Shown: positions 351 through 40,350 of the stretch, piece after piece
Position numbering within the stretch: the first letter of the stretch is position 1
Layout: every line of letters starts with the position of its first letter
Assembly (NCBI GenBank): GCA_029982795.1
Contig: JARRBY010000003.1
Span: forward strand, 1 to 43,268
DNA from: Patescibacteria group bacterium
Lineage (GTDB): Bacteria > Patescibacteriota > Patescibacteriia > Patescibacteriales > UBA12465
Length of the DNA: 43,268 nucleotides
Direction: 5' to 3'
Program-made: the position numbers and the translations under genes
The notes under the pieces: generated by a model
The model's database searches: none
What the model saw: only the letters and a program-made list of their open reading frames with translations
What the model was told of the DNA's origin: nothing

Positions 351-379
351 TTGACAAAATAATTTAATTATGTTATAAA
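351..379 (+). promoter_or_regulatory. Sigma70-type promoter for the 419..901 gene
   Basis: TTGACA(351-356)-17 nt-TATAAA(374-379) with TG extension; followed by TGTACTTTAAAA at 395-406. Confidence 0.7.
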
Positions 380-418
380 TTAAGTAGTATTAATTGTACT
401 TTAAAATAGTATTTACAT

Positions 419-901
419 ATGGAAAATGATCAAGCAATTGAATTAATGTCTGTTTTGGAATCAAATGATCAAATCATAAATATCATAAAGGAAAAAAAAT
501 ATGATTCTATGGTTTGTTTGCAGGCTATTCCATTTCTAAGATTAGAAGAAAAGGATGAAAGGGAGGTATTACGTATTTTAAAGAAAATAAAATATGAACC
601 TCAAATTTGTGTTGCCGCGCTTACTTTTTTAAAAAAAGAAAAAAATGTAATGCGTATAATCAAAAAATCTGGCTATGTCCCTGAAGTTTGTCAAGCGGCA
701 ATTAGTAGTTTGAATTTAGGCAATAAATCTGAATCTAAAATCATGTCTATCTTAAATCAAGTTAAATATGATTTAGCGATTTGTGAGGCGAGTATAAGTT
801 ATCTAAAAAAAGAAAGTAATCTTTTAAAGATACTTAAAAAAAATGGTTATAACAAACGTTTGGTTACGGTTGTTATGAAACGTTTAGAAACTTTAAAATA
901 G
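419..901 (+). CDS. Hypothetical helical-repeat protein (160 aa)
   Basis: About five repeats of the form (K/G)Y-x3-(V/I)C-x-A-x4-L...I(L/I)KK spaced roughly 26-31 aa apart; has its own promoter and terminator. Confidence 0.8.
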   Translation: MENDQAIELMSVLESNDQIINIIKEKKYDSMVCLQAIPFLRLEEKDEREVLRILKKIKYEPQICVAALTFLKKEKNVMRIIKKSGYVPEVCQAAISSLNLGNKSESKIMSILNQVKYDLAICEASISYLKKESNLLKILKKNGYNKRLVTVVMKRLETLK

Positions 902-910
902 TTTCCATAT

Positions 911-944
911 AATCCTGAAGCTAAAATCGCTTCAGGATTTTTTT
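911..944 (+). terminator. Intrinsic terminator
   Basis: AATCCTGAAGC/GCTTCAGGATT stem followed by a T run. Confidence 0.8.
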
Positions 945-948
945 AAAT

Positions 949-982
949 AAAAAAAGGCCTAGTATTATAACTAGGCTTTTTT
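949..982 (-). terminator. Intrinsic terminator (probably bidirectional) for 991..1461
   Basis: GCCTAGT/ACTAGGC stem flanked by A and T runs. Confidence 0.75.
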
Positions 983-990
983 GATTTTTT

Positions 991-1461
991 TTATTTTATT
1001 TGTTCTCCAATGAAGATGGAAAAAATTTCGTTGGCATTAATTTTTCTTATACCAACCGCTTCCTTTATTAATCTTAATGCCTCTTTAGTCAGTCTTTTAC
1101 TTCTAAAACTTAATGCTGTTTTAAGTTTTATAGGTAAAAGATAATCTTGAGGATGATTAATCTTCAACTCGGTTTGGCAAAGATAATTTTCGCAACAAAC
1201 CAGATTTTTATTTATATCCTCATGATTGAGGAATAAAAAATATTTTGCTGTTCTTTCACCACAAATTGGGCATATTTTCTTGTAGCGAGGGGTATTTTCC
1301 AGAAGGGCTTCTAAATGATTCTGTAGGCGATTTATATTTTTTCCTTTACGATAATTATTTAAAGAAATAATATAATCGGGATTTTTGAAGATCAATTCTT
1401 CAAGATATTCTCCCGCATGCTTACCAGTCTGAAAGAGATAGGGTTCATTAATTTCATTCAT
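991..1461 (-). CDS. Hypothetical protein with a DUF3820-like GKH(x)G N-terminus and a putative zinc ribbon
   Basis: FQTGKHAGEYLEELIFKNPDYI resembles the FGK(H/Y)KG...P..Y motif; CPICG...CCENYLC cysteine cluster. Confidence 0.7.
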   Translation of the reverse strand: MNEINEPYLFQTGKHAGEYLEELIFKNPDYIISLNNYRKGKNINRLQNHLEALLENTPRYKKICPICGERTAKYFLFLNHEDINKNLVCCENYLCQTELKINHPQDYLLPIKLKTALSFRSKRLTKEALRLIKEAVGIRKINANEIFSIFIGEQIK

Positions 1462-1495
1462 GACTTTAATTTTTTTATGTTAAACAACTGTAATT

Positions 1496-1524
1496 AGTAT
1501 ACAATATTTATAAATAAAAGTCAA
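1496..1524 (-). promoter_or_regulatory. Sigma70-type promoter for 991..1461
   Basis: Minus strand TTGACT-17 nt-TATACT. Confidence 0.7.
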
Positions 1525-1552
1525 GTTTATGAATTATCAAGTTTATGAATTA
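1521..1552. repeat. Exact 16-bp tandem duplication
   Basis: TCAAGTTTATGAATTA twice (1521-1536, 1537-1552), overlapping the -35 element. Confidence 0.9.
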
Positions 1553-1567
1553 TTTTTTAAAAAGAAT

Positions 1568-1599
1568 AAAAAAAGACACCTATTTATTATATAGGTGTC
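1568..1599 (-). terminator. Intrinsic terminator for the 29-aa ORF
   Basis: GACACCTAT/ATAGGTGTC stem with an A run on the left (U tract on the minus strand). Confidence 0.7.
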
Positions 1600-1616
1600 A
1601 AATAAAAAAAGGTAAA

Positions 1617-1706
1617 TTACACGTCCACTGGAGTCCAATCAAAAAATTGGATTAAATCTGGTTCTTGAGGACTAACAGGGGGCGGTATTAAAGAATAATC
1701 TTCCAT
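1617..1706 (-). CDS. Small acidic, Pro-rich peptide (29 aa, MEDYSLIPPPVSPQEPDLIQFFDWTPVDV)
   Basis: Translated by hand; upstream TTGACA (1766-1771, minus strand) and CGTACTTT leader motif; terminator downstream. Confidence 0.55.
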   Translation of the reverse strand: MEDYSLIPPPVSPQEPDLIQFFDWTPVDV

Positions 1707-1785
1707 AATTGTTTTTTTTAAAAAGTACGATAATCGGCTTATATTATATAAAAGCTTTTAATTTATGTCAAGAGCGGATAGAAAG

Positions 1786-1813
1786 AAAAAAGACGAACCT
1801 CGGTTCGTCTTTT
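1786..1813 (-). terminator. Intrinsic terminator downstream of the PIN-PhoH gene
   Basis: AAAAGACGAACC-TC-GGTTCGTCTTTT perfect inverted repeat. Confidence 0.8.
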
Positions 1814-1848
1814 GAGAATTTTGATTTTTAAAATGTTTATAATACTGT

Positions 1849-3279
1849 TTATAATACTTTTTCGGCATAAGCGGCCACCTCAGAACGAACAGTGTGAGTT
1901 AGATTAACTACACCAATCATTGGATTGCCAACCATTTTTGCCATAGCATACGATAATCCCGAGTTTTCTGCATTGAGAAAACGACGGTCTATCTGTCCTA
2001 AGTCCCCCACAAAAACCACTTTAGAATCACGCCCCATTCGAGTAATGATTTGTTTTATTTCAATTGGTGATAAGTCTTGTGCTTCATCAACAATTAAAAA
2101 GGTTTTGTGATAAGTTCTTCCTTTATAGTACTGAATGGAATTAACTTTAATTCCCAGTCTACTTAAAAATTCAAATTGTTTTGTCCGTAAAAAATTTAGA
2201 AGTTCAGCGCGACTACAATTTTTTTTGCGGCTATCTTCTGAAATAACTTCTTTCATCCAAAAATTAGGATTTTTATCATTAGCGTCAATAATAACTTCTA
2301 AATTTTGGACAAAGGGATCCATAAATTCTGACATTTTGGCATTTAAGTCACCAGGTAGAAAACCAAGACGGTCCAGGTCACCAATTAAGATAGCAGGCCG
2401 GGTTAGGATAATATCGCGATAATCATCGTGTTTTTCCAAAGCAGCAGCAAGTGCAAGTAGGGTTTTACCTGAACCAGCTCCACCTGAGGCCATAACTACT
2501 TTAATTTCCGGATCAAGTAATTGGGCAATTAATAATTCTTGTTCCCAATTACGTTCTCCTTCATTTTGTGATTTAATCCCAGAGGCAGAAATATAACTTG
2601 GAATACGTACAATTTCATTTTTCTTGCGATAGGCTAGACTTAAATTGTCGTTTTCTTTTAAAAGAACACCGTCATTTTCTTTTATTCCAGGAAATTTGTT
2701 TGCTTTGTAGATAATTTTTCCTGATTTGTCATAATCTTTTAAGTTTAGTTTAACGATTTTTAAGCCTTTTTCTTCTGTTTTTGCAGAGGGAATTCGAATA
2801 TTACGAAATCTTTCTACTTCAACTCGAGGATTGTTTTCAAAAAAACTAGAAGCAAGAATAAGCATGCTTGTGTCATCAGTGACTAATTTAATTTTTTTAT
2901 AAGAACTAAAATCAGTTGATTTGGTGACATGATTTAAGCAGGCAATAATTTGGTTGTCAGGGACATCTTTATCTAAAGATAAGCGAGAAAAATTTTGTGA
3001 CCATAAAATTTTTAGTTTACCTTCTTTATGGAATTTGTAAATGAGATTTGAAGCCATTCGGGCTTCATGTTTCACTTCTGGTTTTGTCTTTAGCTTATCA
3101 AGTTCAACGACCACTGTTTTTGGAACAATCAATAAATTTTTATCTTTAATGAAGTCATGTAAAACAGTGTAATCATTAATAAAGACGTTAGTGTCAACGA
3201 TGATTACATTTCCTTTTTCCTCTTCTTGACTTAATCCATTTTTATTTACAACCGGTACAGAATTTTTTACTTTTTTCAT
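1849..3279 (-). CDS. PhoH-family ATPase with N-terminal PIN domain (PhoH2/YlaK type)
   Basis: PIN motifs IIVDTNVFI, VVVELDKLK, PDNQII, LVTDD; Walker A GGAGSGKT; LGFLPGDLNAKM, KGRT, IVDEAQD, VFVGDLGQID. Confidence 0.92.
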   Translation of the reverse strand: MKKVKNSVPVVNKNGLSQEEEKGNVIIVDTNVFINDYTVLHDFIKDKNLLIVPKTVVVELDKLKTKPEVKHEARMASNLIYKFHKEGKLKILWSQNFSRLSLDKDVPDNQIIACLNHVTKSTDFSSYKKIKLVTDDTSMLILASSFFENNPRVEVERFRNIRIPSAKTEEKGLKIVKLNLKDYDKSGKIIYKANKFPGIKENDGVLLKENDNLSLAYRKKNEIVRIPSYISASGIKSQNEGERNWEQELLIAQLLDPEIKVVMASGGAGSGKTLLALAAALEKHDDYRDIILTRPAILIGDLDRLGFLPGDLNAKMSEFMDPFVQNLEVIIDANDKNPNFWMKEVISEDSRKKNCSRAELLNFLRTKQFEFLSRLGIKVNSIQYYKGRTYHKTFLIVDEAQDLSPIEIKQIITRMGRDSKVVFVGDLGQIDRRFLNAENSGLSYAMAKMVGNPMIGVVNLTHTVRSEVAAYAEKVL

Positions 3280-3473
3280 AGTGTTATAATATTTTTTTGT
3301 GAAAGTACGTTGTTATCTGTTTTCAAGTTAACATAGAAATAAACATTTGGCAATGTGGAGAAAATATTTATATAAATATAATAAAAATCAAATTATCTTG
3401 ACAAATTAGAAAAAAATATGTTAGGTTATGGTTGATAGTAATCAATTGTTGTACTTTAAAAATATATAAGAAG

Positions 3474-3872
3474 ATGAAAAAGAACAAAGAATTTCCTGTA
3501 TTTTCTCAAAGAGACAAATCCTGGTCTTTATATGAGTTACGAAAGAGAAATAAAAAGTTTGTTTCGATGACGATACTGTATTTAAGTAATCCAGATCAAA
3601 GCCAAGGAAAAAGAAAAAGTTTTTGGGATTATTTTTCTTGTCCGTGTTGTCATCAAGAAATCAAAGAAGTTGTGGTAAATGATGAAAATGGGATATTGCT
3701 TTCCTTTGATAAGAAAAATAAAGCGGTTATTCGTTTTCGTGATGAAAACGCTTGGAAGGCAGTGGAAAATTATGATGAAAGAACAATGAAAAAAGAAGAA
3801 GATTCTCATCTCTTTTATCCATATTGTTTTACTTTTCCTGTTATGAACATAAAGAGAATTGTTTGGGTTTAA
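3474..3872 (+). CDS. Hypothetical protein (start moved to ATG 3474)
   Basis: The track's TTG start at 3432 overlaps promoter and leader (TTGACA 3398, TGTACTTTAAAA 3450-3461); contains CPCC. Confidence 0.7.
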   Translation: MKKNKEFPVFSQRDKSWSLYELRKRNKKFVSMTILYLSNPDQSQGKRKSFWDYFSCPCCHQEIKEVVVNDENGILLSFDKKNKAVIRFRDENAWKAVENYDERTMKKEEDSHLFYPYCFTFPVMNIKRIVWV

Positions 3873-3882
3873 TTAAATTAAA

Positions 3883-4104
3883 ATGTTAAAAATTATTGCT
3901 GTTTTGTGTTATATAGCCTTTGTGCTATATTTCACCTTTCGAGGGAAAACGCAGGAAAAAGAATCATTTTTTAGTCATAAATTAATGCGTTTTATGTTTG
4001 CCCTTGTTGTTTTTCCCTTTTTTGGTTGCCTGTTATTTTTAGCAGGTACAGTTCTAAAGTTTTTTGGTAGCTTTTTCTTAGCCCCTTTTAACTTTAATTT
4101 TTAA
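3883..4104 (+). CDS. Small membrane protein (73 aa)
   Basis: Two hydrophobic segments; 10 nt after the previous ORF; followed by a terminator. Confidence 0.7.
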   Translation: MLKIIAVLCYIAFVLYFTFRGKTQEKESFFSHKLMRFMFALVVFPFFGCLLFLAGTVLKFFGSFFLAPFNFNF

Positions 4105-4110
4105 AAAGAT

Positions 4111-4146
4111 AAACGGCACTGGATATAAATCTAGCGCCGTTTTTTT
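4111..4146. terminator. Intrinsic terminator between convergent genes
   Basis: AAACGGCACTGGAT/ATCTAGCGCCGTTT imperfect stem followed by a T run. Confidence 0.7.
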
Positions 4147-4162
4147 ATTTCATTTAATATTT

Positions 4163-4762
4163 TTAATTGCAGGTAGCGGGAGTAGTGATGATGGTGATTT
4201 CTTTAAAACCAGCTGCTTCAAAAAGCAGTGATAATTGTTTTTTGGCATTTTCATTAGCTTCTTCTAATATATTGCCATCACAAGCGGCTTGCCTTATTTC
4301 ACTTTCTGCTTTTTGTCGGGCAGTTGCCTCTAAGTCTAATTCACCTTTGGTAAATAAACCACGTTCACGATCAAAAACGGAAGTAGCATTATTATCTAGA
4401 ATAGTTTCTAAAATTTGTGGAGCCGGTAATTTAATGATAATACTGTCACCTTTACCAGAATAGTTTGAAGAATCTAAAGTGGAAAGATCGAAACCGGCAA
4501 TTACTTTACCATGGGCAATAAGTATAATTTTATCACCAAACAAAAAATCCCGTAAACGATCATAATCAGTACTAATTTCAATAATTTTATCAATCCTAAA
4601 GGAAGCTGTTTCAAAACGTGTCAGAGTTTCAATTTGTTTTATCACAGCTGCTCTGTCGGGGCCATAGCGAAAATCCGGATTTTTTTGGAAAGATCGCCAA
4701 GCAAAAAAGATGGCAAAAAAACCAACAATTATTAAGAGTGAGATAATTATATATTTTTTCAT
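4163..4762 (-). CDS. DUF4230-family membrane-anchored protein
   Basis: N-terminal TM helix; IAHGKVIAGFDLS, IKLPAPQIL, ILEEANENAKKQL...AGF pattern. Confidence 0.85.
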   Translation of the reverse strand: MKKYIIISLLIIVGFFAIFFAWRSFQKNPDFRYGPDRAAVIKQIETLTRFETASFRIDKIIEISTDYDRLRDFLFGDKIILIAHGKVIAGFDLSTLDSSNYSGKGDSIIIKLPAPQILETILDNNATSVFDRERGLFTKGELDLEATARQKAESEIRQAACDGNILEEANENAKKQLSLLFEAAGFKEITIITTPATCN

Positions 4763-4987
4763 AATGCTATAAATTAATATATTTATAGTTTAAATAGAAT
4801 TTATGATTATTGCAATCTTTAAAATTGACACTAAGCTATATTAGTGATTATATTACGAAAGAGTTATAACAGAAATTAATTTGTAGTTTGTTTGATTAGA
4901 GTTATGTTTTTATAACATTTAAAATTAAAAACTGGTTTTAAAAGATAAAAAAAGATGTTAAAATAAAAAAATATTAAGAATAAAAAT

Positions 4988-6169
4988 ATGAGTAAAAATT
5001 GTTTGATTGTTAATACCGGCAGTGCTTCTAAAAAATATAGTTTTTATATTGGTGAAGAAAAAAAATATAGTGCTCATTTTGAAAAAGAGGGCAACTCTCT
5101 TATTGTTACCGAAACTATTGGAGATAACAAGGAAAAAAAAGTTTTAAATGATAATGATTATCCGCAGTCTGCTCGTTTTGTAATTGACTCCTTAGTTAGG
5201 GAGCAAATTATTGCTAATGAAAACAATTTACAAGTAATTGGAATTAGAATTGTTGCTCCCGGTAATTTCTTTTTAGAAACAAAAAAAATTGATGAGGATT
5301 ATATTAAAAGAGCTGAAGAAGCTCTTGAGAAAGTTCCTCTTCATTTAGCCCCAGCTTTAACTGAAATTAAAAATCTTAAATCTATTTTTGGTGAGAGTAT
5401 ACCAATTATTGGTGTTTCCGATAGCGCTTTTCATAAAACTATACCGCTTGAAAATAAATTATATTCAATTCCCATTGCTGATACTCGTAAATATGAAATT
5501 TATCGTTTTGGTTATCACGGAATTTCAGTTCAATCTATCGTTTGTCAAATAAAAGAAAAATTATCTTATATTCCAGAAAAAATGATAGTTTGTCATTTGG
5601 GTGGAGGAGCAAGCATAACTGCGGTTTTAAAAGGGAAAAGTGTGAATAATACGATGGGGTTTACCCCGCTTGAAGGTTTAACTATGGCCACTCGGGTGGG
5701 TGATATTGATCCCGGAGTAGTCCTTTTTCTTGCTGAAAAATTAAATTTAAATCGAAGTGAATTAAATCATTACTTTAATAATAAATGTGGACTTTTAGGT
5801 TTATCGGGTTCAAGTGATGATATTAGGGAACTTTTAAAAAAAGAAGAAGAGGGAGAAAAGGACGCCGCTTTAGCTTTGAAAGTTTATGTGGAAAGAGTAA
5901 AGGAAAATATTGCGAAAATGGCAGCTAATTTAGGAGGAGTTAATCTGCTGGTTTTTGCCGGTACGGTGGGAGAGCGTTCCTTTGTTTTACGTGAAAGAAT
6001 CTGTTCAAAACTTGAATATATGGGTATTGTTTTAGATAAGGTGAAAAATGACGGTAATGAGGGGAGTCGTTTAGATTTAGAAGCAAAGACAAGTTTGGCT
6101 AAAATTATGATAATTAAAACTGATGAAATGGCGGAAATTATTAAAGCTGTTTACAAGGTTGATTTATAA
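4988..6169 (+). CDS. ackA: Acetate kinase
   Basis: NTGSASKK, PLH, DSAFH, RFGYHGIS, CHLGGGAS, TMGFTPLEGL-MATRVGDIDP, TDE. Confidence 0.95.
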   Translation: MSKNCLIVNTGSASKKYSFYIGEEKKYSAHFEKEGNSLIVTETIGDNKEKKVLNDNDYPQSARFVIDSLVREQIIANENNLQVIGIRIVAPGNFFLETKKIDEDYIKRAEEALEKVPLHLAPALTEIKNLKSIFGESIPIIGVSDSAFHKTIPLENKLYSIPIADTRKYEIYRFGYHGISVQSIVCQIKEKLSYIPEKMIVCHLGGGASITAVLKGKSVNNTMGFTPLEGLTMATRVGDIDPGVVLFLAEKLNLNRSELNHYFNNKCGLLGLSGSSDDIRELLKKEEEGEKDAALALKVYVERVKENIAKMAANLGGVNLLVFAGTVGERSFVLRERICSKLEYMGIVLDKVKNDGNEGSRLDLEAKTSLAKIMIIKTDEMAEIIKAVYKVDL

Positions 6170-6324
6170 TTTGTTTTTTTAGTTTTTAATCGATAAAAAT
6201 ATTAAATATCTGTTAAATAAATTGTATTATTAGGTCTTTTTGTTAATCAAAAAAATATTTTATTATTTTCCAAAATTTGTTAAAATAAATATATATTTAT
6301 TAATTAAAATATAAAAGAAAACAT

Positions 6325-7551: not shown

Positions 7552-7625
7552 TTAGTTTTAGATTATTTCTTGTTTATATAGTATTTTGTAGTTTTAGTTA
7601 AAAAGATAGAATTATATAAAACATA

Positions 7626-7660
7626 AAAAGATTGGTATTTTTGAAAACCAATCTTTTTTT
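7626..7660 (+). terminator. Intrinsic terminator
   Basis: AAAAGATTGGT/ACCAATCTTTT stem followed by a T run. Confidence 0.75.
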
Positions 7661-13276: not shown

Positions 13277-13305
13277 TTGACATAATATCATTATTATGAT
13301 ATAAT
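13277..13305 (+). promoter_or_regulatory. Consensus sigma70 promoter
   Basis: TTGACA-17-TATAAT with TG extension. Confidence 0.85.
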
Positions 13306-13335
13306 AATTTTTATAATTAAGGAACCTTAAAAAAT

Positions 13336-13391
13336 ATTCTACTCTAGCTAATAGCTATTCTATTCAGGATAATTATTAGCTGGGGCAGAAT
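13336..13391 (+). other. 26-bp RNA hairpin in a long 5' leader
   Basis: 13336-13361 pairs with 13366-13391 with 4 G-U pairs and 2 mismatches; ATTC loop. Confidence 0.7.
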
Positions 13392-13471: not shown

Positions 13472-13909
13472 ATGAAGAGTCAACTGGAAATTAAACCAAT
13501 TGCACACCTAATTGATTGTAATGCAAATCCTTCTACTCCGGCTGGTTGGTTATTTGAGGAGCACAAGAGGAATGGACTCTTCGAATTTGATCCTGCCAAG
13601 GTTTTCCTTTATCTGTCTGAAAAGCAGAAAAAAGGCACAATTTCTGGGTATGATCTTCGTAAGGAATTGAGGAATAAGCCAGTAATGAATGCTAACGTTC
13701 TTGATTATTTGTTGGCACATATTGAACTTATTCCAGAAGAATGGAAAGGTAAGTTTGTATATTTTTGGGGCACTATTTATCGCTATTCCATTGACAGTCT
13801 CTATGTTCGTTGTCTTTTATGGGATAGCTACAATTTAGAGTGGCGCTGTTGTTACATTTGGCTTAATTACAAATTTAATTCTAATGATTTTGCCGCCCTT
13901 ATAATATGA
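13472..13909 (+). CDS. Probable DGR variable (target) protein of CPR type
   Basis: IDCNANP...NANVLDYLLAH-ELIPEEWKGK-VYFWGTIYR...LYVRCL-W...W...WL...F...AAL matches the CPR DGR target family as recalled; 33 of the last 42 codons end in C or T. Confidence 0.75.
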   Translation: MKSQLEIKPIAHLIDCNANPSTPAGWLFEEHKRNGLFEFDPAKVFLYLSEKQKKGTISGYDLRKELRNKPVMNANVLDYLLAHIELIPEEWKGKFVYFWGTIYRYSIDSLYVRCLLWDSYNLEWRCCYIWLNYKFNSNDFAALII

Positions 13910-14031: not shown

Positions 14032-14060
14032 TTGACATTATATTTTAAATATGTTATAAT
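14032..14060 (+). promoter_or_regulatory. Consensus sigma70 promoter
   Basis: TTGACA-17-TATAAT with TG extension. Confidence 0.85.
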
Positions 14061-14134: not shown

Positions 14135-14287
14135 ATGAAAAAAAAATTAAAAAAAGCAAGCGCAAAAACAAAAAGAGAGTTTAAATGTGAATCATTTGGA
14201 AATAGGTGCTCAATTTGTGGCACTTACTTTGATGAAGATGGTGTTTGTTCTTTTGGCCATGAACTAGGCCAAACTTATATCATCTAA
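14135..14287 (+). CDS. Small basic zinc-finger-like protein (50 aa)
   Basis: MKKKLKKASAKTKREFKCESFGNRCSICGTYFDEDGVCSFGHELGQTYII translated by hand; CxxC-x9-C-x3-H; has its own promoter and terminator. Confidence 0.75.
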   Translation: MKKKLKKASAKTKREFKCESFGNRCSICGTYFDEDGVCSFGHELGQTYII

Positions 14288-14305: not shown

Positions 14306-14333
14306 ACCCGTTGTTACAAACAGCGGGTTTTTT
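14306..14333 (+). terminator. Intrinsic terminator
   Basis: ACCCGTTGTT/AACAGCGGGT stem followed by a T run. Confidence 0.8.
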
Positions 14334-14612: not shown

Positions 14613-14691
14613 GTTTGTTAAAACTTTATTTTTACTTTAAAACCAAACAGGTATCGGTTTTTATTTTTTCTAATTTTTATAACATTAAAAA

Positions 14692-15123
14692 ATGCGTAAA
14701 AAAACTTTAGCTTTTATTGAAATTGCTTTAATTATAATTTTTATTTTTATTCTTCTTCTTTTTTCTTTATGGCTTTTAGAGCAGGGGAAAATAAGGGCTA
14801 ATGATGCGAAAAAGATAGCTGATGTAAAAGAAATACAGAGTGCTTTAGCTTTATATTTTCATGAAAATAATGATTATCCTGACATACTGGAAAGTAATAA
14901 TGCTTTACAAAGTCGAACAACAATTTATCTTGATATTGTTCCTGAAGCACCTATAAGCAAGGGGGAATGTGCTTCTTTTGGCTATAATTACCAAAGAAAT
15001 ATTGAACAAGAAGGGAATCCGTCCTATACTTTAGAGTACTGTCTTAGTCAAGCGTCAGCTGATATTCCAGCTGGAATAAATACGGCAACACCAGCTGGTT
15101 TAAGTTTAAGAAAAATTGATTAA
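14692..15123 (+). CDS. Type IV pilin / GspG-like protein with a degenerate prepilin motif
   Basis: KKTLAFIEIALII hydrophobic helix; RANDAKKIADVKEIQSALALYF..N..YP; C-terminal Cys pair (YTLEYCL). Confidence 0.8.
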   Translation: MRKKTLAFIEIALIIIFIFILLLFSLWLLEQGKIRANDAKKIADVKEIQSALALYFHENNDYPDILESNNALQSRTTIYLDIVPEAPISKGECASFGYNYQRNIEQEGNPSYTLEYCLSQASADIPAGINTATPAGLSLRKID

Positions 15124-17295: not shown

Positions 17296-17454
17296 TTATT
17301 GGGGCAAGCTGATAAGAGCTAATGAATCTTTGATAATAGTCAAAATATTGACCAATATCTCATTAGCAATATATCCAGCTTGTGGAGGGAAAAGCCATTT
17401 CAAAACGAAAATGAAAAATAAAATCGTGATGAAATTGTTAAGAATTCTAAACAT
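17296..17454 (-). CDS. Small membrane protein (52 aa)
   Basis: MFRILNNFITILFFIFVLKWLFPPQAGYIANEILVNILTIIKDSLALISLPQ translated by hand; ends at the terminator; structured leader, AGTTCTTTAAAT and TTGACT (17580-17585) upstream. Confidence 0.7.
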   Translation of the reverse strand: MFRILNNFITILFFIFVLKWLFPPQAGYIANEILVNILTIIKDSLALISLPQ

Positions 17455-17659
17455 ATGTTTAAAATTAGAGGTAAAAAATTTAATTATTTTCTACCCCCGA
17501 CAAAGCGATGTCGCAAAGGCTTTTCCTATATATATTTAAAGAACTATTATAATAATATATTTACATATTTTAGTAAAAGAGTCAAGGTCTTGGGTTTTAT
17601 ATACATTTTGTTATATACTATTAATATAATTAATTTTAATTAGTAATTAACTTTATATT

Positions 17660-29571: not shown

Positions 29572-29829
29572 CTAGAATCTTTTTTCCATAGGACGAGCCT
29601 CATTGACGACAACGCGACGTCCGTCTAATTCTTGGTTGTTGTACATTTCAATGGCTTTGTCTGCTTCCGCATCATCTTCCATTTCCACGAAACCAAATCC
29701 TTTAGATCTTTGAGTCATTCTATCCTTAATAATGATAGCAGATAAAACTTTGCCGGCTTTTGAAAAAGCTTCATTTAAAGCTTCCTCAGTGGTCTTGAAA
29801 TTCAAGCCGCCGACGAATAATTTCTTCAT
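29572..29829 (-). CDS. RRM-domain RNA-binding protein
   Basis: RNP2 LFVGGL, RNP1 KGFGFVEM, VNEARP. Confidence 0.95.
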   Translation of the reverse strand: MKKLFVGGLNFKTTEEALNEAFSKAGKVLSAIIIKDRMTQRSKGFGFVEMEDDAEADKAIEMYNNQELDGRRVVVNEARPMEKRF

Positions 29830-31172: not shown

Positions 31173-31718
31173 TTATCCTTTTTTAATTTGCAGAAAGTCT
31201 AATTCAACCGGAGTTTCGCGACCAAAAAGAGAAACAGATACTTTAACTTTACCTTTAGCTTCATCAATCGCTGTGACCTTTCCTTCCATATTCTTAAAGG
31301 GACCTTCATTAATTTTAACAGGGGAACCAATTTCAACATCAATTTGAAATTTAGGATCTTCAACCCCCATTCTTTTTTGCAAAGCTTTTACTTCAGCGTC
31401 ACTAATTGGAGTGGGAATAGTCCCACTGCCAATAAAACCGGTCACGTTAGGAGTGTTACGTACTATATACCAAGATTCATCAGTTACTATCATTTCTACT
31501 AAAATATAGCCCGGGAAGATTTTTTCTTCACTAACTTTTCTTTTTCCATTTTTAATTTTAATCTTTTTTTCAGTGGGGATTAAAACGTTAAAAATTTTAT
31601 CCTCCATATCCAAGGATTCCACTCTTTGTTTTAAATTTTGCGCCACATTTTCTTCGTATCCAGAATAAGTATGAATAACGTACCAGCGACGTCCTTGGTT
31701 TAAAAGTTGTTTAGCCAT
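31173..31718 (-). CDS. nusG: Transcription termination/antitermination factor NusG
   Basis: WYVIHTYSGYE, IFPGYILVEM, KOW domain, FGRETPVELDF. Confidence 0.98.
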   Translation of the reverse strand: MAKQLLNQGRRWYVIHTYSGYEENVAQNLKQRVESLDMEDKIFNVLIPTEKKIKIKNGKRKVSEEKIFPGYILVEMIVTDESWYIVRNTPNVTGFIGSGTIPTPISDAEVKALQKRMGVEDPKFQIDVEIGSPVKINEGPFKNMEGKVTAIDEAKGKVKVSVSLFGRETPVELDFLQIKKG

Positions 31719-33895: not shown

Positions 33896-33896
33896 T

Positions 33897-34598
33897 ATGA
33901 GTGCTTTACTAAGCGTTGTTGCCACGCCTATTGGCAACCGAGAGGATATTACTCTAAGAGCCCTGCGGGTTTTTCGGGAAGCGGACTTAATTTTATGTGA
34001 GGATACTCGTGTTGCTAAAAAATTGCTTGCTTATTATGAAATAAAAACACCTCTTCTTTCCTATCACCAACATTCTGATAATTTAAAAACTGAAAAAATT
34101 AAGGAACTTCTAAAAGCAGGGAATAAGTTAGCTTTAATAAGTGATGCCGGTACGCCAGGTGTGTCTGATCCGGGTAGCAAATTAATTTCCCAATTACGAG
34201 AAACTAAAGATTTGGATCTTAAAATGGAAATAATTCCTGGTCCTTCCGCTTTAACCGCTGCTTTATCACTAGCCGGGACAGGTTTTGATCGTTTCATTTT
34301 CTTAGGCTTTCTGCCACACAAGAAGGGAAGACAAACTTTTATATCTCAAATTATTAATTCAAAAATGTCTTTTGTCCTTTATGAATCCAAGCATCGTCTC
34401 CTTAAATTACTTCAGGAGTTAAGTCGGGCGAGTGAATTGGTGGGAGCAAAAAAAGAACTTTTAATATTTCGAGAAATTAGTAAATTGCACGAAAGTGTTT
34501 ATAAAGGAGAGCCTGATGTATTACTGACAGATTTACAAAAAGATGCTAATAATTTAAAAGGAGAATTTGTCGTTTTAATAAAGGATAAAAATAGATAA
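33897..34598 (+). CDS. rsmI: 16S rRNA C1402 2'-O-methyltransferase
   Basis: VATPIGNREDITLRAL, CEDTR, SDAGTPGVSDPG, YESKHR, KGEFV. Confidence 0.95.
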   Translation: MSALLSVVATPIGNREDITLRALRVFREADLILCEDTRVAKKLLAYYEIKTPLLSYHQHSDNLKTEKIKELLKAGNKLALISDAGTPGVSDPGSKLISQLRETKDLDLKMEIIPGPSALTAALSLAGTGFDRFIFLGFLPHKKGRQTFISQIINSKMSFVLYESKHRLLKLLQELSRASELVGAKKELLIFREISKLHESVYKGEPDVLLTDLQKDANNLKGEFVVLIKDKNR

Positions 34599-34611
34599 AA
34601 TTTTAAAAATT

Positions 34612-36054
34612 ATGTCAGAAAAAGAATATTTTTATATCACCACCACTTTGCCGTATATTAATTCCGAGCCTCACATTGGTTTTGCCGCTGAGATTATTAA
34701 GGCTGATGTAATTGCTCGTTATCAGAGACAACAAGGAAAACATGTTTTTTTTAACACCGGTACCGATGAACATGGTTTAAAAGTCTACCAAAAAGCGCAA
34801 GCGGAAGGCTTGTCTGTAGCTGAATATTGTGATAAATATTCTGCTAAATTTAAGCCACTTAAGGAAAAGTTAAACCTTTCTTATAATAAATTTATTAGGA
34901 CGACAGATGCTTCTCATCAGGCAGCGGTTCAAGAATTTTGGCGACGTTGTTTTAATCAAGGCGATATTTATAAAAAGAAATATGAGGTTAAATATTGTGT
35001 TGGGTGTGAAATGGAAAAAACCGATTCTGAACTAGAAAATGGTTTTTGTCCTCTTCATCCGGGACAAAAATTAGAATTAATTGCTGAAGAAAATTATTTT
35101 TTTCGTTTTTCCAAGTATCAAAAACAATTACTTGCGCTTTATAAGCAAGATAATTTTATCATTCCTGCTTCTCGTCAAAAAGAAATTAATAATTTTGTTG
35201 CTTCGGGATTAAAAGATTTTAGTATCTCTCGTCAAAGAGAAAAAATGCCTCACGGTGTGCCGGTTCCTAATGATGATAGCCAAGTCGTATATGTTTGGTT
35301 TGACGCTTTAGTTAATTATATTTCCACTCTTGGTTGGCCTCAAACTGAGAGTAATTTTGCTAAATATTGGCCAGCGGTTCAAGTTTGCGGTAAAGATAAT
35401 CTCCGTCCACAAGCAGCGATGTGGCAAGCCATGTTAATGTCGGCGGGAATTAAACCTTCAAAACAAATTTTAGTTTTTGGTTTTCTAACTAATAATGGTC
35501 AAAAAATTGGTAAAAGTTTAGGAAATACAATAGATCCCTACAGTTTAGTTGAAAAATACGGTAGCGATGCTTTGCGCTATTACTTATTAGCCGAAATTTC
35601 AACCTTTGCTGATGGTGATTATTCCGAAGATAAATTTATTACCCGTTATAATGCTGATTTGGCTAATGGTTTGGGTAATTTAGTAGCCCGAGTAGCTAAT
35701 TTATTAGAAAAAAATGAAATTAAAACTAAGTTAAAACCTGATTTAACATTCACTGATATTAAAAAAACCGTAACACTTTTTGAAAAATCAATGGCTAATT
35801 ATCATTTTAATGAAGCCCTGCAAATTATTTGGGAAAAAATAAGCGAACTTAATGAAAGTTTAAGCACTCAAGCCCCTTGGAAATTAGAAGATAGAGCAGC
35901 TATCGCTTCTGTTTTAATTCCGTTAGCACAAGATATAATAAACCTTGCTTATTTATTGGAACCATTTATACCACTTACAGCGGTTAAAATTAATACTCAA
36001 TTTCAAATGAATCAAATTAAAAAAGGGGAAGCCTTATTTCCTCGTTTAAATTAA
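34612..36054 (+). CDS. metG: Methionine--tRNA ligase (short form)
   Basis: LPYINSEPHIGF, GTDEHG, FIRTT, YVWFDALVNY, KIGKSLGN, LANGLGNL. Confidence 0.96.
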   Translation: MSEKEYFYITTTLPYINSEPHIGFAAEIIKADVIARYQRQQGKHVFFNTGTDEHGLKVYQKAQAEGLSVAEYCDKYSAKFKPLKEKLNLSYNKFIRTTDASHQAAVQEFWRRCFNQGDIYKKKYEVKYCVGCEMEKTDSELENGFCPLHPGQKLELIAEENYFFRFSKYQKQLLALYKQDNFIIPASRQKEINNFVASGLKDFSISRQREKMPHGVPVPNDDSQVVYVWFDALVNYISTLGWPQTESNFAKYWPAVQVCGKDNLRPQAAMWQAMLMSAGIKPSKQILVFGFLTNNGQKIGKSLGNTIDPYSLVEKYGSDALRYYLLAEISTFADGDYSEDKFITRYNADLANGLGNLVARVANLLEKNEIKTKLKPDLTFTDIKKTVTLFEKSMANYHFNEALQIIWEKISELNESLSTQAPWKLEDRAAIASVLIPLAQDIINLAYLLEPFIPLTAVKINTQFQMNQIKKGEALFPRLN

Positions 36055-36059
36055 AATTT

Positions 36060-36575
36060 ATGTCTATTTTGGATTTAATTTTAGTTGCTTTTCTGGCTTT
36101 TGCTTTCTTTTATGGTTTTAAAAAAGGTTTAATTCGTTCTTTAGGCAGAATTGTCGGGCTTATAATTGGTATTTATATTTCTTCCCACTATTATCTTAAT
36201 TTTTATTTGTGGGGACAGGATTTACTAAATATTAATGAAAATGTTGAAAAAATAATTGCTTTTATTATTTTATTTATTGCCGTTATTCAAATTAGTAATT
36301 TAATATTTTATCTAATTGAAAAAACCTTTAAATTAATTGCTTTTATCCCTGGTAGTAAATATATTAATAATATTTTAGGCGGTATTTTAGGGTTAGCGGA
36401 AAATGCACTTTTTTTAGGTACAATTTTTTATGTTTCAGCTCGTTATCTTGCTCTTAGTGAACGTTTTTCCGATATAGCTAATGATTCAATTGTCTTGCCT
36501 TGGCTTAATAAAACAGTGGAAATTATTTTACCCCTTTTACCGCAAGCGTTAAAAACTATTCAAACTATTATCTAA
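36060..36575 (+). CDS. cvpA: CvpA-family membrane protein
   Basis: LDLIL...GFKKGLI, NNILGGILG; four TM helices. Confidence 0.88.
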   Translation: MSILDLILVAFLAFAFFYGFKKGLIRSLGRIVGLIIGIYISSHYYLNFYLWGQDLLNINENVEKIIAFIILFIAVIQISNLIFYLIEKTFKLIAFIPGSKYINNILGGILGLAENALFLGTIFYVSARYLALSERFSDIANDSIVLPWLNKTVEIILPLLPQALKTIQTII

Positions 36576-36576
36576 T

Positions 36577-37170
36577 ATGAATTATCAGTATAAGGCTTTA
36601 ACATCACTGACAGCTAATGATATTAGTTTTATTGTTAGTTTATTAAAGAAAGATAAAGTTTTGGTTCTTCCCACTGACACTATCTATGGTCTTAGTTGTC
36701 GAGCAAGCAGTTACAAGGCTTTTACTAAAATTAGGAGGCTTAAAAATCGCCCTGATTATAAACCTTTTATTCTTTTAATTTCTGATTTGGAAATGGCTAA
36801 TCAATTAGCTGATATTAAACCTGAAAAATTAAAAGAAATTAAAAAAATTTGGCAAACAAGCGAACCTACTACCATTATTTTAAAGGGACAAAAATCAGTT
36901 TTACCGTTTTTAAAAAGTAAAGCGGGTAATATTTCTTTGCGTTTGCCTAAATCTGATTTTTTAATTAAAATAATAAAAGAACTGGGCGAACCTTTAATTT
37001 CAACCAGTTTGAATTTAAGCGGTCAACCCGCTTTAAAAACAGTAAAAGAGCTTGATATGATTTTTCCCGCTAATTTATTACCAGACTTTGTTTTTGATAG
37101 CGGTGTTCTTGATAGGCCCCCTTCTAAAATAATTGATTATAGCGGGAATAAACCTTTTCAAGTTCGTTAA
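36577..37170 (+). CDS. tsaC: L-threonylcarbamoyladenylate synthase (YrdC/TsaC)
   Basis: LPTDTIYGL, LKNR..KP, SLRLP, STSLNLSG, PSKIID. Confidence 0.93.
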   Translation: MNYQYKALTSLTANDISFIVSLLKKDKVLVLPTDTIYGLSCRASSYKAFTKIRRLKNRPDYKPFILLISDLEMANQLADIKPEKLKEIKKIWQTSEPTTIILKGQKSVLPFLKSKAGNISLRLPKSDFLIKIIKELGEPLISTSLNLSGQPALKTVKELDMIFPANLLPDFVFDSGVLDRPPSKIIDYSGNKPFQVR

Positions 37171-37190
37171 TTTAAAAAAATAATAAAACT

Positions 37191-38417
37191 ATGCGAAATT
37201 TAAATAAAAAAATTAAACAACCAGCCCTCATTATTTTTTCTCTTTTAATTGTTGGTGGAGTTTATTTGTTGGGATTTTATGCCGGTAAAGATAAGACAGC
37301 TTATCAAGGCAGTTTAGCTTATTCACCTGAAGTAAGAGAAATGAGAGCTAATAATAAAGATAATTTTGATTTTAATTTATACTTTGAAGTATGGAACAGT
37401 TTAAAAAGTGAACATGTTGATAAAAACAAAATCAAAGATAGTGATTTGTTTTATGGTTCTTTAGAAGGAATGGCGGCTGCTACTGGTGACCCCTATACAA
37501 TTTTTATGAATCCGGAAGAAACTACTGAATTTTATGAAGATCTTTCGGGAACATTTGAAGGAATAGGGGCTGAAATTGGTATGCGTAATGAAATAATAAC
37601 CGTTATCGCCCCGCTTGATGGGACGCCGGCACAAAAAGCCGGTTTAAGGGCAGGGGATAAAATTTATGCCATTGATGGCGAATCTGTTCTTGGTCTTAGT
37701 GTGAATGAAGCCGTTAAAAAGATAAGAGGTGAAAAGGGAACGGCGGTAACTTTAACTATTATACGCAATGATGATAAGCCAAGTGATATTGAAATTATAA
37801 GGGATAAAATAGTGGTAAATTCTGTAAAAACAGAAATGAAAGAAAATGGTGTTTATTATTTACAAATATCCAACTTTAATGATGATACCCAAATATTGTT
37901 TGATAAGGCGGTCTCGGATATTTTATTAAAAAATCCTAAAGGGATAGTTTTAGATTTACGTAATAATCCTGGTGGTTATTTAGATACCGCTATTTATATT
38001 GCCAGTGATTGGATTAAAGAGGGACCGATAGTGGCGGAACAATTTGGTGAAAATAAACGAGCGGAACATCCCTCACGCGGTCAAGCCCGTTTAAGTGGTA
38101 TTAAAACGGCAGTTTTAATCAATGAAGGTAGTGCTTCCGCCTCAGAAATTGTTGCCGGAGCTCTACGTGATTATAAAAAAGCAACAATAATCGGTAAACA
38201 AAGTTTTGGTAAGGGATCAGTGCAGAACGTTCGGGATTTAAGTGATGGTTCGTCTTTAAAAATAACAGTGGCCAGATGGTTAACTCCGGAGGGTGATTAT
38301 ATTCATGATAAAGGAATAGCCCCGCAAATTGAAGTTGATATTAGTGAAGACGATATTAATAATAATCGTGATCCACAGTTAGAGCGAGCAATAAACTTTA
38401 TTTTAGAAAATAAATAA
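37191..38417 (+). CDS. ctpA: S41-family C-terminal processing protease with PDZ domain
   Basis: GDPYT, FEGIGA, DLRNNPGG, SASASEI, GKGSVQ. Confidence 0.95.
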   Translation: MRNLNKKIKQPALIIFSLLIVGGVYLLGFYAGKDKTAYQGSLAYSPEVREMRANNKDNFDFNLYFEVWNSLKSEHVDKNKIKDSDLFYGSLEGMAAATGDPYTIFMNPEETTEFYEDLSGTFEGIGAEIGMRNEIITVIAPLDGTPAQKAGLRAGDKIYAIDGESVLGLSVNEAVKKIRGEKGTAVTLTIIRNDDKPSDIEIIRDKIVVNSVKTEMKENGVYYLQISNFNDDTQILFDKAVSDILLKNPKGIVLDLRNNPGGYLDTAIYIASDWIKEGPIVAEQFGENKRAEHPSRGQARLSGIKTAVLINEGSASASEIVAGALRDYKKATIIGKQSFGKGSVQNVRDLSDGSSLKITVARWLTPEGDYIHDKGIAPQIEVDISEDDINNNRDPQLERAINFILENK

Positions 38418-38434
38418 GTAAGTAAATAAATAAG

Positions 38435-38462
38435 AAAAAGGCGCTAAAATTTAGCGCCTTTC
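38435..38462. terminator. Bidirectional intrinsic terminator
   Basis: AAAGGCGCTAAA/TTTAGCGCCTTT. Confidence 0.8.
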
Positions 38463-38478
38463 TTGTTTTTGTTTTTTG

Positions 38479-38736
38479 TTAATCAAAGTCTACGTAGAAC
38501 TGATTATTTTCTTTTCTAAATTCCTGTTGAATCAGTTCTCGTAATTTTTCCTCTTTATCTCGGGGTAAATCAAAATGAATTGAATTCCCTGAAAAAATGT
38601 GGTCTTCTACCACTTCTTGCCTTTCTTCTATTAAAAATTGTGCGATTTTTAATAGGTTTCCACTTTTGCTCTCTAACAAATAGTTACCTTCTTCTCGTAC
38701 GATAAAACTTCGTCCTTGTTTTACAATTTCTAGCAT
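38479..38736 (-). CDS. Hypothetical protein (85 aa)
   Basis: ATG ORF filling the gap and ending at a terminator; no motif. Confidence 0.7.
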   Translation of the reverse strand: MLEIVKQGRSFIVREEGNYLLESKSGNLLKIAQFLIEERQEVVEDHIFSGNSIHFDLPRDKEEKLRELIQQEFRKENNQFYVDFD

Positions 38737-38827
38737 GATAAGATTTTTTTAATGTAATGTAATGATGTTAAATTACCATTTTTAGGCTATCATATTATTT
38801 TATATTTGTAAATAAACTGAACAGTAT

Positions 38828-38856
38828 TTGACAAAATTAAGATTTAGTTGTATAAT
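38828..38856 (+). promoter_or_regulatory. Consensus sigma70 promoter for the FISUMP gene
   Basis: TTGACA-17-TATAAT; AGTTCATTAAAA at 38903-38914. Confidence 0.85.
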
Positions 38857-38942
38857 ATAAACATACTTAAGTTAAGCTAAAAAAGTGAAAATTAAGTAAA
38901 AAAGTTCATTAAAATAAAAATTTAAAACAAAAAAAGTAAGGC

Positions 38943-40235
38943 ATGAAAGCAATCGTTAGAATTGGTCTCTGGAAAGCGATAGCTTTCCTGACCGCCGCTG
39001 TGATGGTACTTTTCTCCTGCTCCTCTTGTGAGCCCGAAGAACCGCCCGTTGTCTATGAACCAAGCATTAATATCTCGGTGGAAAATGTTCGAGGGACTAG
39101 TGTAACCCTCGTTGCTCAAGTTTCTGCCGGTGGGCGAAACTTGGAAGTACAGTTTGAATATTTTGCTGATGGAAGTTGGCATAAGATTGAAGCCGGACGA
39201 ATCAGTGGTCAAGACGTACAAACAATTAAAAAAGAATTAACCGGTCTGGTTCCGGAAAAAGATTATCAATTGCGTGGAGCCCTGATTTTTCGTTTAGATG
39301 GCGCCTGGGATTATGTCGCTACTGCAAATACTCTTAGTTTTAAAACTTTGAAGCATACAAATATCAGAGTGAAAAAAACTACTAGCGACTACAACTTTAT
39401 TGAGGTGGAGATTGAACTGATTCCGCATCTAGCCAACACTAAGATTGAGTTGGAATATCAGTTAAATAACAAAAAGGAAGTGCAAATGGCGCCCGGAACT
39501 TATAGTGGTGATCAGCCTTTAACTTTAAACTTCAAAATGGATAAATTAGCAAAGAATACAATTTACCCTGTGCAAATTAAAGTAATAAATGATTCTCCTT
39601 TTGTTCTGGATACCATCTTTCAAACGGCCGCAGTAGAAGACTATGATGGCAATAAGTACTGTTTAGTCACTATCGGTTCTCAAGTTTTTCTCAAAGAAAA
39701 CTTGAAAGCCACTCATTTTTTAAACGGCGATCCGCTTCCGAATGTTGAGAGTAATGAAGAGTGGTACAATCTCAAAACTCCCGCTTATTGTTACTATAAT
39801 AACGACCCGGAGTTAGGAGAAAGATATGGTGCTCTTTATAACTTCTATGCCGCTTCCGACCCGAGAGGATTCATTGCTGGTTTTCACACGCCGACGATAG
39901 AGGAATATATGGAGCTGAGTAATTATCTTGGTCAAGACGCTGGCGGAAAGATGAAAACTACCACCCCGGATTGGGAACAGCCCAATAAGGGAGCAACCAA
40001 CTCTAGTGGTTTTAGTGCTTTGCCAGCGGGAGCAAGGTCGTATTCAGGCGATAGCTATGACCAACCAGAATTTTTAGGATTAGGCATATCTGCAAATTTT
40101 TGGACAGGAAAAATTGAGCCGGCTTTGCCTCAATACGCCTATACTCCTCATTGCTTTTATAACCAAGATGGTTTCGCTTACAGTGGCCTTAATCCTCATT
40201 GGATGGGAATTAGTGTTCGTTTAATACAGGACTAA
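38943..40235 (+). CDS. Lipoprotein with two Ig/FN3-like domains and a C-terminal Fibrobacter succinogenes major paralogous (FISUMP) domain
   Basis: VLFSCSSC lipobox; DYDGNKY..VTIGSQVFLKENLK, YGALYNFYA, ATNSSGFSALPAG, GISVRLIQD. Confidence 0.9.
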   Translation: MKAIVRIGLWKAIAFLTAAVMVLFSCSSCEPEEPPVVYEPSINISVENVRGTSVTLVAQVSAGGRNLEVQFEYFADGSWHKIEAGRISGQDVQTIKKELTGLVPEKDYQLRGALIFRLDGAWDYVATANTLSFKTLKHTNIRVKKTTSDYNFIEVEIELIPHLANTKIELEYQLNNKKEVQMAPGTYSGDQPLTLNFKMDKLAKNTIYPVQIKVINDSPFVLDTIFQTAAVEDYDGNKYCLVTIGSQVFLKENLKATHFLNGDPLPNVESNEEWYNLKTPAYCYYNNDPELGERYGALYNFYAASDPRGFIAGFHTPTIEEYMELSNYLGQDAGGKMKTTTPDWEQPNKGATNSSGFSALPAGARSYSGDSYDQPEFLGLGISANFWTGKIEPALPQYAYTPHCFYNQDGFAYSGLNPHWMGISVRLIQD

Positions 40236-40245
40236 ACTAATATCT

Positions 40246-40279
40246 AGCGGAGTGTTTGCAACAAACACCCCGCTTTTTT
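40246..40279 (+). terminator. Intrinsic terminator
   Basis: GCGGAGTGTTTG/CAAACACCCCGC followed by a T run. Confidence 0.8.
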
Positions 40280-40350
40280 ATTGTAAAAAATATGAAATAT
40301 TGTTATAATATATTTAGTTCTTTATATTTTTAAAAATCATTAAAAATTTT

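Follow-up and report, generated by a model that had tools for sequence, protein, structure and literature searches.

Stand-alone genes in the 43,268-nucleotide stretch of Patescibacteria group bacterium DNA analysed here (assembly GCA_029982795.1, contig JARRBY010000003.1, positions 1 to 43,268; hereafter the window) carry a 12-nucleotide element between promoter and start codon, and the same element is present in the leaders of this genome's own 16S and 23S rRNA genes. The most economical inference, which on balance we favour, is that the 12-mer is a boxA-type leader RNA element common to rRNA and accessory-gene transcripts and bound by NusB-S10. An earlier note, made from the sequence of the window alone, had claimed nine such 12-mers, had likened them to boxA and had proposed that they mark accessory genes. 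All nine were located exactly at the positions and on the strands it gave, and the claimed order on the coding strand is borne out at every copy, since each has a sigma-70-type promoter-like site 5′ of it and a start codon 3′ of it, all reading in the same direction.

Genome G000, of which the window forms contig C7, comprises 668,587 bases in 35 contigs (about 32% G+C). Genes were called throughout simply as the longest open reading frame (ORF), and promoters were assigned by match to the consensus rather than by mapping of transcript starts; a leader was taken to run from the −10 hexamer of the best promoter to the start codon of a called ORF. Copies of the element were scored in bits with a 12-column matrix trained on the leaders of genomes G016 and G005 only, G000 being left out. 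These two genomes and a third relative, G007, belong to the same genus as G000 and are represented by 400 kb each (40–46% G+C). A score of at least 8 bits was counted as a hit, with at least 10 bits as a stricter cut.

The element in rRNA leaders and in the window

The 16S and 23S rRNA genes of G000 are unlinked (contigs C8 and C23), and each has its own consensus promoter followed by a hairpin and then a boxA. The boxA of the 16S leader (C8:6904-7167) is GAACCTTAAAAA and scores 13.2 bits; that of the 23S leader (C23:22357-22640, minus strand) is GAACTTTAATAA and scores 10.8 bits. Both lie about 100–190 nucleotides (nt) 3′ of the rRNA promoters, after the hairpins. The homologous 16S leader of G013, the only one of five relatives in which a search for the 16S rRNA gene found it, retains the boxA block. 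The likeness to boxA asserted in the earlier note is thus upheld by the genome's own rRNA leaders, in which the same motif stands.

One protein-coding leader of the window holds an exact copy of the 16S-leader boxA GAACCTTAAAAA (13322-13333, plus strand; 14 nt identical, 13.2 bits), 16 nt past the −10 of a perfect promoter (13277-13305, plus strand; TTGACA, 17 nt, TATAAT with TG) that matches the consensus at 12 of 12 positions and is the best-scoring promoter of the contig. The 11-mer of this boxA occurs twice in the whole genome, here and in the rrn leader only. Directly 3′ of it is a strong hairpin (13336-13391, plus strand; −35 kcal/mol, z −4.2, with none of 200 shuffles as stable), and the 138-nt leader of the ORFan gene at 13472-13909, which has no Pfam family, holds both the boxA and the hairpin.

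Four further copies cluster at one end of the window. The plus-strand copy GTACTTTAAAAT (396-407, listed from 395 in the earlier note; 11.3 bits) begins 16 nt past the −10 of a promoter-like site read from the sequence (351-379, plus strand; TTGACA, 17 nt, TGnTATAAA; score 12.5) and ends 11 nt ahead of the ATG at 419, which starts a gene for a 160-residue protein without Pfam family (419-901; terminator 911-939). Another plus-strand copy, GTACTTTAAAAA (3451-3462; 12.9 bits), also ends 11 nt ahead of its ATG, at 3474; the promoter-like site, again read from the sequence, is at 3398-3427 (plus strand; TTGACA, 18 nt, TGnTAGGTT), and the gene (3474-3872) encodes 132 residues, likewise without Pfam family. 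On the minus strand, GTACTTTCACAA (3297-3309; 10.3 bits) lies 17 nt ahead of the ATG of a gene assigned by Pfam to PIN-PhoH (3279-1849; phoH2-type), and the marginal copy GTACTTTTTAAA (1717-1729; 7.4 bits) lies 14 nt past a perfect promoter (1771-1743) and 8 nt ahead of a 29-residue ORF (1708-1619). The genome holds 99 copies of the exact heptamer GTACTTT, and the only four of them in leaders all fall at 395-3461 of the window.

Among the remaining copies, the core GTTCTTTAAATA (17534-17545, minus strand; 9.6 bits) is 78 nt ahead of a 52-residue hydrophobic ORF (17454-17296), and the core GTTCATTAAAAT (38903-38914, plus strand; 10.3 bits) is 27 nt ahead of the ATG at 38943 of a Fib_succ_major protein. 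A weak copy with the core GTTGTTTAACAT (1478-1489, minus strand; 8.2 bits) has G in place of the key C; it lies 7 nt past the promoter 1524-1496 and 15 nt ahead of the ATG at 1461 of a gene without Pfam family (991-1461). The copy GTTCTTTATATT (40316-40327, plus strand), 7 nt past the −10 of the gene 40351-42372, is doubtful at only 3.5 bits. The distances from the end of the element to the start codon are accordingly 11, 15, 8, 17, 11, 27 and 78 nt, with 138 nt for the copy at 13322. Two extra weak hits, both of 8.3 bits and both without the leading G, are TAACATTAAAAA (14680-14691, plus strand), which was not on the earlier list and abuts the ATG at 14692, and TTACATTAAAAA (38746-38757, minus strand), 9 nt ahead of the ATG at 38736 of a gene for 85 residues without Pfam family.

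Stand-alone units of promoter, element, ORF and terminator, as the earlier note had described them, are seen in the window, with terminator-like hairpins at 911-939, 976-957, 1599-1575, 1813-1788 and 17289-17265. The 29-residue and 52-residue ORFs (1619-1708 and 17296-17454, both minus strand) each have their own promoter, element and terminator (1599-1575 and 17289-17265, respectively), and an ORF cut-off of 60 residues misses both. A second promoter with a 12/12 consensus match (14032-14060) leads to a lysine-rich ORF of 50 residues with four cysteines (14135-14287; zinc-ribbon-like) and a terminator at 14306-14328, without a clear boxA. These short stand-alone genes without Pfam family are interspersed among ordinary chromosomal genes (ackA, htrA, nrdJ, gap, a hydrogenase cluster, secE-nusG-L11-L1 and metG). 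The element had been reported missing before gap, nrdJ, secE and htrA, and indeed the best scores there are 5.0, 4.1, 3.2 and 3.2 bits; the 5′ regions of L1, L11 and nusG in the window likewise lack it. Rfam and tRNA scans of the window gave no match.

The copy ahead of the PIN-PhoH gene has counterparts in relatives. A search of 30 related genomes found homologues of this gene in 7, with proteins only 30–39% identical, and all six loci for which upstream sequence was available (L004, L005, L006, L007, L009 and L010) have a boxA-like block, for example TTCTTTAACAA or GTTCATTAACAA, soon after the −10. This block aligns with GTACTTTCACAA of the window, giving seven loci in all. The phoH2 leaders of G018 and G008 (L006:1368-1500; L007:3146-3020, minus strand) share in addition a long conserved stretch past the boxA, ATTAACCACTAAAAACGCCAACTGGAGG, perhaps because the leader is structured or contains a small ORF upstream of the gene.

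The bases that are best kept in the element can be set against those reported to contact NusB. In the excerpts of PMC3177189 used here, the NusB-NusE-BoxA structure has G2, C5, the pyrimidine at position 6 and U8 as critical for binding, and transversions at positions 2, 5 and 6 of lambda boxA are described as not tolerated. The best-kept columns of our matrix match G2, C5, U7 and U8 (G 0.66, C 0.67, T 0.90 and T 0.83). In the window, the copies at 396, 3308, 3451, 13322 and 17545 agree with these nucleotides; position 6 is A in the copy at 38904, and C5 is replaced by G in that at 1488.

The proteins that would read a boxA are encoded as well. The presence of nusB, which the earlier note had wanted checked, was confirmed in G000, with the C-terminal GKFVNGVL helix conserved; among the 31 genomes of the order nusB was found in 28, and the GKFVNGVL stretch aligns with solved NusB proteins, whose RNA-binding helix carries an aromatic residue described in the excerpts of PMC3177189. 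NusA and S10 genes are present in G000, and nusG (Pfam NusG and KOW) lies in the window at 31173-31718 (minus strand), its own leader scoring 6.3 bits at best. The two predicted leaders beside nusB (C23:25069 and C23:25335), inspected by eye and unscored, contain no motif-like sequence, and upstream of the S10 gene there are hairpin-like hits only.

Enrichment, orientation and spread of the element

De novo searches were made with an expectation-maximisation (EM) procedure of the zero-or-one-occurrence-per-sequence (ZOOPS) type, written for the purpose, with dinucleotide shuffles as controls. Applied to the 132 leaders of G016 and G005, it returned the motif G[AT][AT]C[TAC]TT[AT]AA[AC]AA (consensus GAACTTTAAAAA) with a log-likelihood of 111.6, far above the 40.4–58.7 obtained in all of 12 shuffles. 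In hits of at least 8 bits, sense stood to antisense as 24 to 1 in the 70 leaders of G016 and as 20 to 2 in the 62 of G005, counts that are circular because the matrix was derived from these two genomes; the ratio was 14 to 2 in the 67 leaders of G007, which lay outside the training, and 12 to 4 in the 108 leaders of G000 (7 to 0 at 10 bits or more), although all such tests overstate independence because the genomes compared are kin. The share of predicted leaders with the motif is 21–34% in the three relatives and 11–34% when G000 is included. Against 200 shuffles, G000 gave 11 hits versus 3.3 ± 1.9 at 8 bits and 6 versus 0.6 at 10 bits, neither value being reached by any shuffle. In the window, where 5′ regions of at most 120 nt each were used and the copy at 13322 falls outside that limit, 8 of 29 regions had a sense hit of at least 8 bits and none an antisense hit; dinucleotide shuffles gave 2.04 ± 1.33, and none of 300 reached 8.

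Three expectations attached to the original claim, namely enrichment over shuffled sequence, strand bias and position bias, fared differently. Strand bias is seen in all four genomes and in the window. Enrichment is found with the relative-trained matrix, both in the window and in G000, but not with counts of a plain consensus (below). Position bias is only mild, towards the 5′ end: 33 of 53 copies lie within 25 nt of the −10 where 25 were expected (p 0.03), and a Kolmogorov-Smirnov test gives p 0.31. In the relatives the motif lies 5–85 nt from the −10 and 7–140 nt from the start codon. Counting enriched 7-mers in 5′ regions recovered promoter hexamers only, and counting 6-mers in leaders recovered only weak motif fragments. 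We also considered whether the motif might be the −35 or −10 hexamer of a second promoter; this was rejected, as most copies do not end in the T expected of a −10 and are not paired with another hexamer.

The orientation counts bear on whether the element acts as DNA. A repressor might bind it as an operator at about +5 to +30 and so keep accessory genes silent, or RNA polymerase might recognise it as a promoter-proximal element, and it fits such a site that several G000 copies start 14–16 nt past the −10 and that the GTAC variant is common to the four adjacent genes at 395-3461. We nevertheless think a DNA site improbable: the motif is not palindromic, it is strictly oriented with transcription (24/1, 20/2 and 14/2 in the three relatives), its distance from the −10 in the relatives varies from 5 to 85 nt, and the rRNA copies lie some 100–190 nt past their promoters and behind hairpins.

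A number of results weigh against reading the 12-mer as a NusB-S10 site in widespread use, in addition to the circularity and kinship just mentioned. Matches to a degenerate plain consensus in the whole window (22) are not enriched over shuffles (19.3 ± 4.8), and across the genome's 358 5′ intergenic regions its counts equal those in shuffles. When the 60 nt directly 5′ of each of 276 starts are searched, the pattern GTWCWTT is found 9 times in sense and 5 times in antisense where 4.8 are expected, and 11 of 200 shuffles reach 9. EM on the 108 leaders of G000 alone finds nothing above shuffles (top motif 55.6, shuffles up to 53.7), and on G007 alone it ranks a boxA-like word fifth (38.1; top motif 43.1, shuffles 33–36). 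Across 31 whole genomes the exact word TTCTTTAACAA occurs about as often as its reversed control. The motif signal in G000 is modest and weak, the genome lying at the low end of the genus. Beyond the genus, the 45 leaders of G027, a genome of a different family in the order, give 3 sense and 2 antisense hits, one of the sense hits being its rrn leader, and a composite pattern of a perfect −10, a 5–30 nt gap and the motif was matched 112 times in 121 genomes of the order versus 105 times in reversed controls (hand sums). With respect to NusB binding, the matrix column for boxA position 6 gives T 0.50, C 0.15 and A 0.35, so that about a third of the relatives' sites have A there, and most mRNA copies seem to have no boxB-like hairpin, although no systematic folding was made. 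Finally, Rho_RNA_bind was detected in none of 31 genomes from the order, with positive controls detected, and the SuhB family (Inositol_P) was not found in G000, which is 98.8% complete; the classical rationale for boxA and one member of the complex are thus missing, and the antitermination against Rho that might have been supposed for these leaders is unsupported.

Some of these points have limits of their own. The composite pattern is a test of low power because coding sequence dominates it, and an excess was seen in G000's own family only (18 versus 7, hand sums); together with the result for G027, these counts indicate that wide use is seemingly confined to the genus or family. Among 30 sampled matches to TTCTTTAACAA, mostly one locus per genome, 7 clearly and 3 possibly lie just 3′ of a TTGACA-17-TATAAT-type promoter. 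As for hairpins, most mRNA copies start 5–25 nt past the −10, which leaves no room for one upstream.

The failure of the plain consensus, of EM on G000 alone and of the whole-genome counts to exceed their controls is what would be seen if the copies were chance AT-rich look-alikes, some of them carried along when genes were duplicated. Duplication has a concrete example, since the leaders of two Fib_succ_major-type genes, at 38857-38942 in the window and at about 11829-11900 of contig C14, are near-identical including the motif and appear to have been copied along with the paralogous genes; moreover, the copy at 40316 reaches only 3.5 bits. Chance is nonetheless a very improbable account of the whole set and is largely refuted for it by the EM log-likelihood in the relatives, far above all 12 shuffles, by the sense bias in the untrained G007 (14/2) and in the window (8/0), by the link to ORFan genes (p 1e-9, below) and by the phoH2 block that is kept at 30–39% protein identity. 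It still stands for the single weak copies at 40316, 1478, 1718, 14680 and 38746.

Genes behind the element and their translation

The suggestion that the motif marks accessory genes is supported in the relatives. Among leaders of G016, G005 and G007, a Pfam family (E 1e-5) was assigned to 12 of 51 proteins behind a motif of at least 9 bits, leaving 39 without one, versus 72 of 95 proteins behind leaders scoring below 6 bits (95 taken from the top of a list of 121); Fisher's p of 1e-9 is too small because orthologues recur among the three genomes. The motif-less set consists of ribosomal proteins, tRNA ligases, gap, secE, clpP and similar genes. As far as predicted proteins can tell, motif-bearing genes are mostly lineage-specific. 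A link to secretion is only modest, hydrophobic N-terminal segments being predicted for 26 of 59 motif-bearing and 56 of 206 motif-less genes (p 0.017).

The earlier note had offered ribosome recruitment without Shine-Dalgarno sites as one function of the element. Start codons of G000 indeed show no Shine-Dalgarno signal, and the base at −1 is T for 70% of the 650 starts called; G drops to about 8% just 5′ of starts, and 15 of 127 predicted leaders are shorter than 10 nt and so possibly belong to leaderless mRNAs. However, the motif-less housekeeping leaders lack Shine-Dalgarno sites too: in four genomes of the genus GGAG or GAGG is present at −20 to −4 in 6 of 206 motif-less leaders versus 10 of 59 motif-bearing ones. 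Since such sites are commoner with the motif, the motif is no stand-in for a missing Shine-Dalgarno site, and this part of the proposal is unsupported; the accessory genes may use a mode of initiation different from that of core genes. Nor is the motif unusually complementary to 16S rRNA, the longest exact complementarity of 7–9 nt being within the spread of shuffled 12-mers when C8:7167-9100 was tested, a range to which the test is limited because the 3′ end of the 16S gene is unusual. There, the 16S match (C8:7167-8870, L001) ends in an odd region, and about 220 nt downstream Rfam reports a group II intron D1-D4 hit of 39 bits, above cut-off; the gene may, to judge from these matches, contain an insertion near its 3′ end.

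In the relatives a second motif, AAATTAACC, follows the boxA-like element (log-likelihood 47.5 versus 23–26 in 6 shuffles), and the sequence 3′ of the element is C-rich and G-poor, C content being 0.171 versus 0.100 in G016. Examples of AAATTAACC with C-rich, G-poor tracts are the leaders at L076:8423, L079:17224 and L084:1736 (from G016, G005 and G007). In G000, the 16S leader has TAATAACC just 3′ of its boxA.

This downstream sequence is one reason to ask if the element, although real and acting as RNA, belongs to a lineage-specific code that merely resembles boxA and is read by another factor, such as ribosomal protein S1, the small RRM protein encoded at 29572-29829 or an RNase, or acts on translation or stability. 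That the motif often ends 8–20 nt ahead of the start codon, that A stands at a NusB-critical position in a third of sites and that the lineage hardly uses Shine-Dalgarno sites all agree with such a code. We consider it unlikely, all the same, given that the motif occupies the canonical place of boxA, after a hairpin, in both rRNA leaders. Its distance to the start codon also varies widely (7–140 nt), and both the unremarkable 16S complementarity and the higher frequency of Shine-Dalgarno sites in motif-bearing leaders (10/59 versus 6/206) speak against it.

Possible mechanism and comparison with known systems

If the element is a boxA bound by NusB-S10, it would be transcribed within the 5′ leaders of genes that stand alone and are mostly lineage-specific, the NusB-S10 (NusE) heterodimer would bind it on the nascent RNA, and the heterodimer together with NusA and NusG might then alter the transcribing polymerase or the leader. 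Because Rho is apparently absent, one of two outcomes would be likely. Transcription of poorly translated accessory genes might become faster, resistant to pausing and independent of ribosomes; alternatively, translation initiation might come under Nus-dependent control as in E. coli suhB, which we considered because the element often ends 8–20 nt 5′ of the start codon. The interpretation in the earlier note thus survives in part: a boxA-like, sense-specific element in accessory-gene cassettes of a genome with nusB stands, and replacement of Shine-Dalgarno sites and antitermination against Rho are unsupported.

The boxA-like element on the leaders of many lineage-specific genes in this ultra-small bacterium and its genus suggests a new and wide use of an old control system. 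One may go further and imagine that in this Rho-less genus of the candidate phyla radiation (CPR), poor in Shine-Dalgarno sites, the Nus machinery was widened from rRNA into a genome-wide switch for accessory genes, with free NusB-S10, reflecting ribosome synthesis, gating fast-evolving genes, with a fifth to a third of promoters feeding boxA leaders before ORFan genes, of which many would encode secreted or membrane proteins, and with new genes gaining a cassette of promoter, boxA, ORF and terminator; we put this forward tentatively and regard it as rather doubtful. Elsewhere the Nus factors are seen as serving rRNA, with only a few mRNAs among their targets in any one species. If the wide use is real, the Nus system can act as a broad regulator with a Rho-independent function, and the motif would be a practical marker of independently transcribed accessory cassettes in CPR genomes. 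Our search of the literature on boxA and NusB in Patescibacteria and the CPR, which did not cover supplements, found no paper on such leaders among the records listed.

The closest known counterpart is the rrn boxA and the rRNA antitermination complex (NusB, NusE/S10, NusA, NusG, SuhB and S4). Here as there, a short single-stranded sense RNA motif would lie 3′ of a promoter, nusB, nusA, nusG and the S10 gene are encoded, and the genome's own rRNA leaders share the consensus. Unlike the few rrn sites, however, the copies described here precede mostly ORFan protein genes in 11–34% of predicted leaders and usually seem to have no boxB-like hairpin, and neither Rho (0 of 31 genomes) nor SuhB (in G000) was found.

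In gamma-proteobacteria, boxA has been placed in the 5′ untranslated regions of the mRNAs of suhB, rpsJ and a ParE-like toxin gene (Baniulyte et al. 2017, PMC5725501). According to the excerpts of that paper used here, boxA mediates Nus-dependent control of translation initiation in E. coli suhB by a mechanism that ends in Rho termination, there are 0–7 putative boxA sites per genome, and few targets per species are expected, mainly Nus or translation genes. Similarities to the elements of the window are that most copies lie within about 50 nt of a start codon, that the search pattern given there, GYTCTTTAANA, overlaps our consensus, and that one of the cases is an accessory (toxin-antitoxin) gene (PMC5725501). 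A Citrobacter gene was also examined in that paper with reporter fusions in E. coli, both wild type and nusB or nusE mutant. The difference is that dozens of leaders per genome have the element in this genus, on ORFan genes, with no Rho found.

The nut sites of phage lambda have the order boxA, spacer, boxB hairpin. The same arrangement, a boxA, a short spacer and a strong hairpin, is seen at 13322-13391 of the window, whereas most copies here seem to have no hairpin; we know of no N-like protein in this organism. Leader signals of the ops/RfaH and LoaP types mark acquired or accessory operons for a special elongation complex, the factor being a NusG paralogue. They are similar in concept, a short leader signal on accessory genes, but they differ in sequence and in factor, and they serve long operons where the element of the window serves single-gene cassettes.

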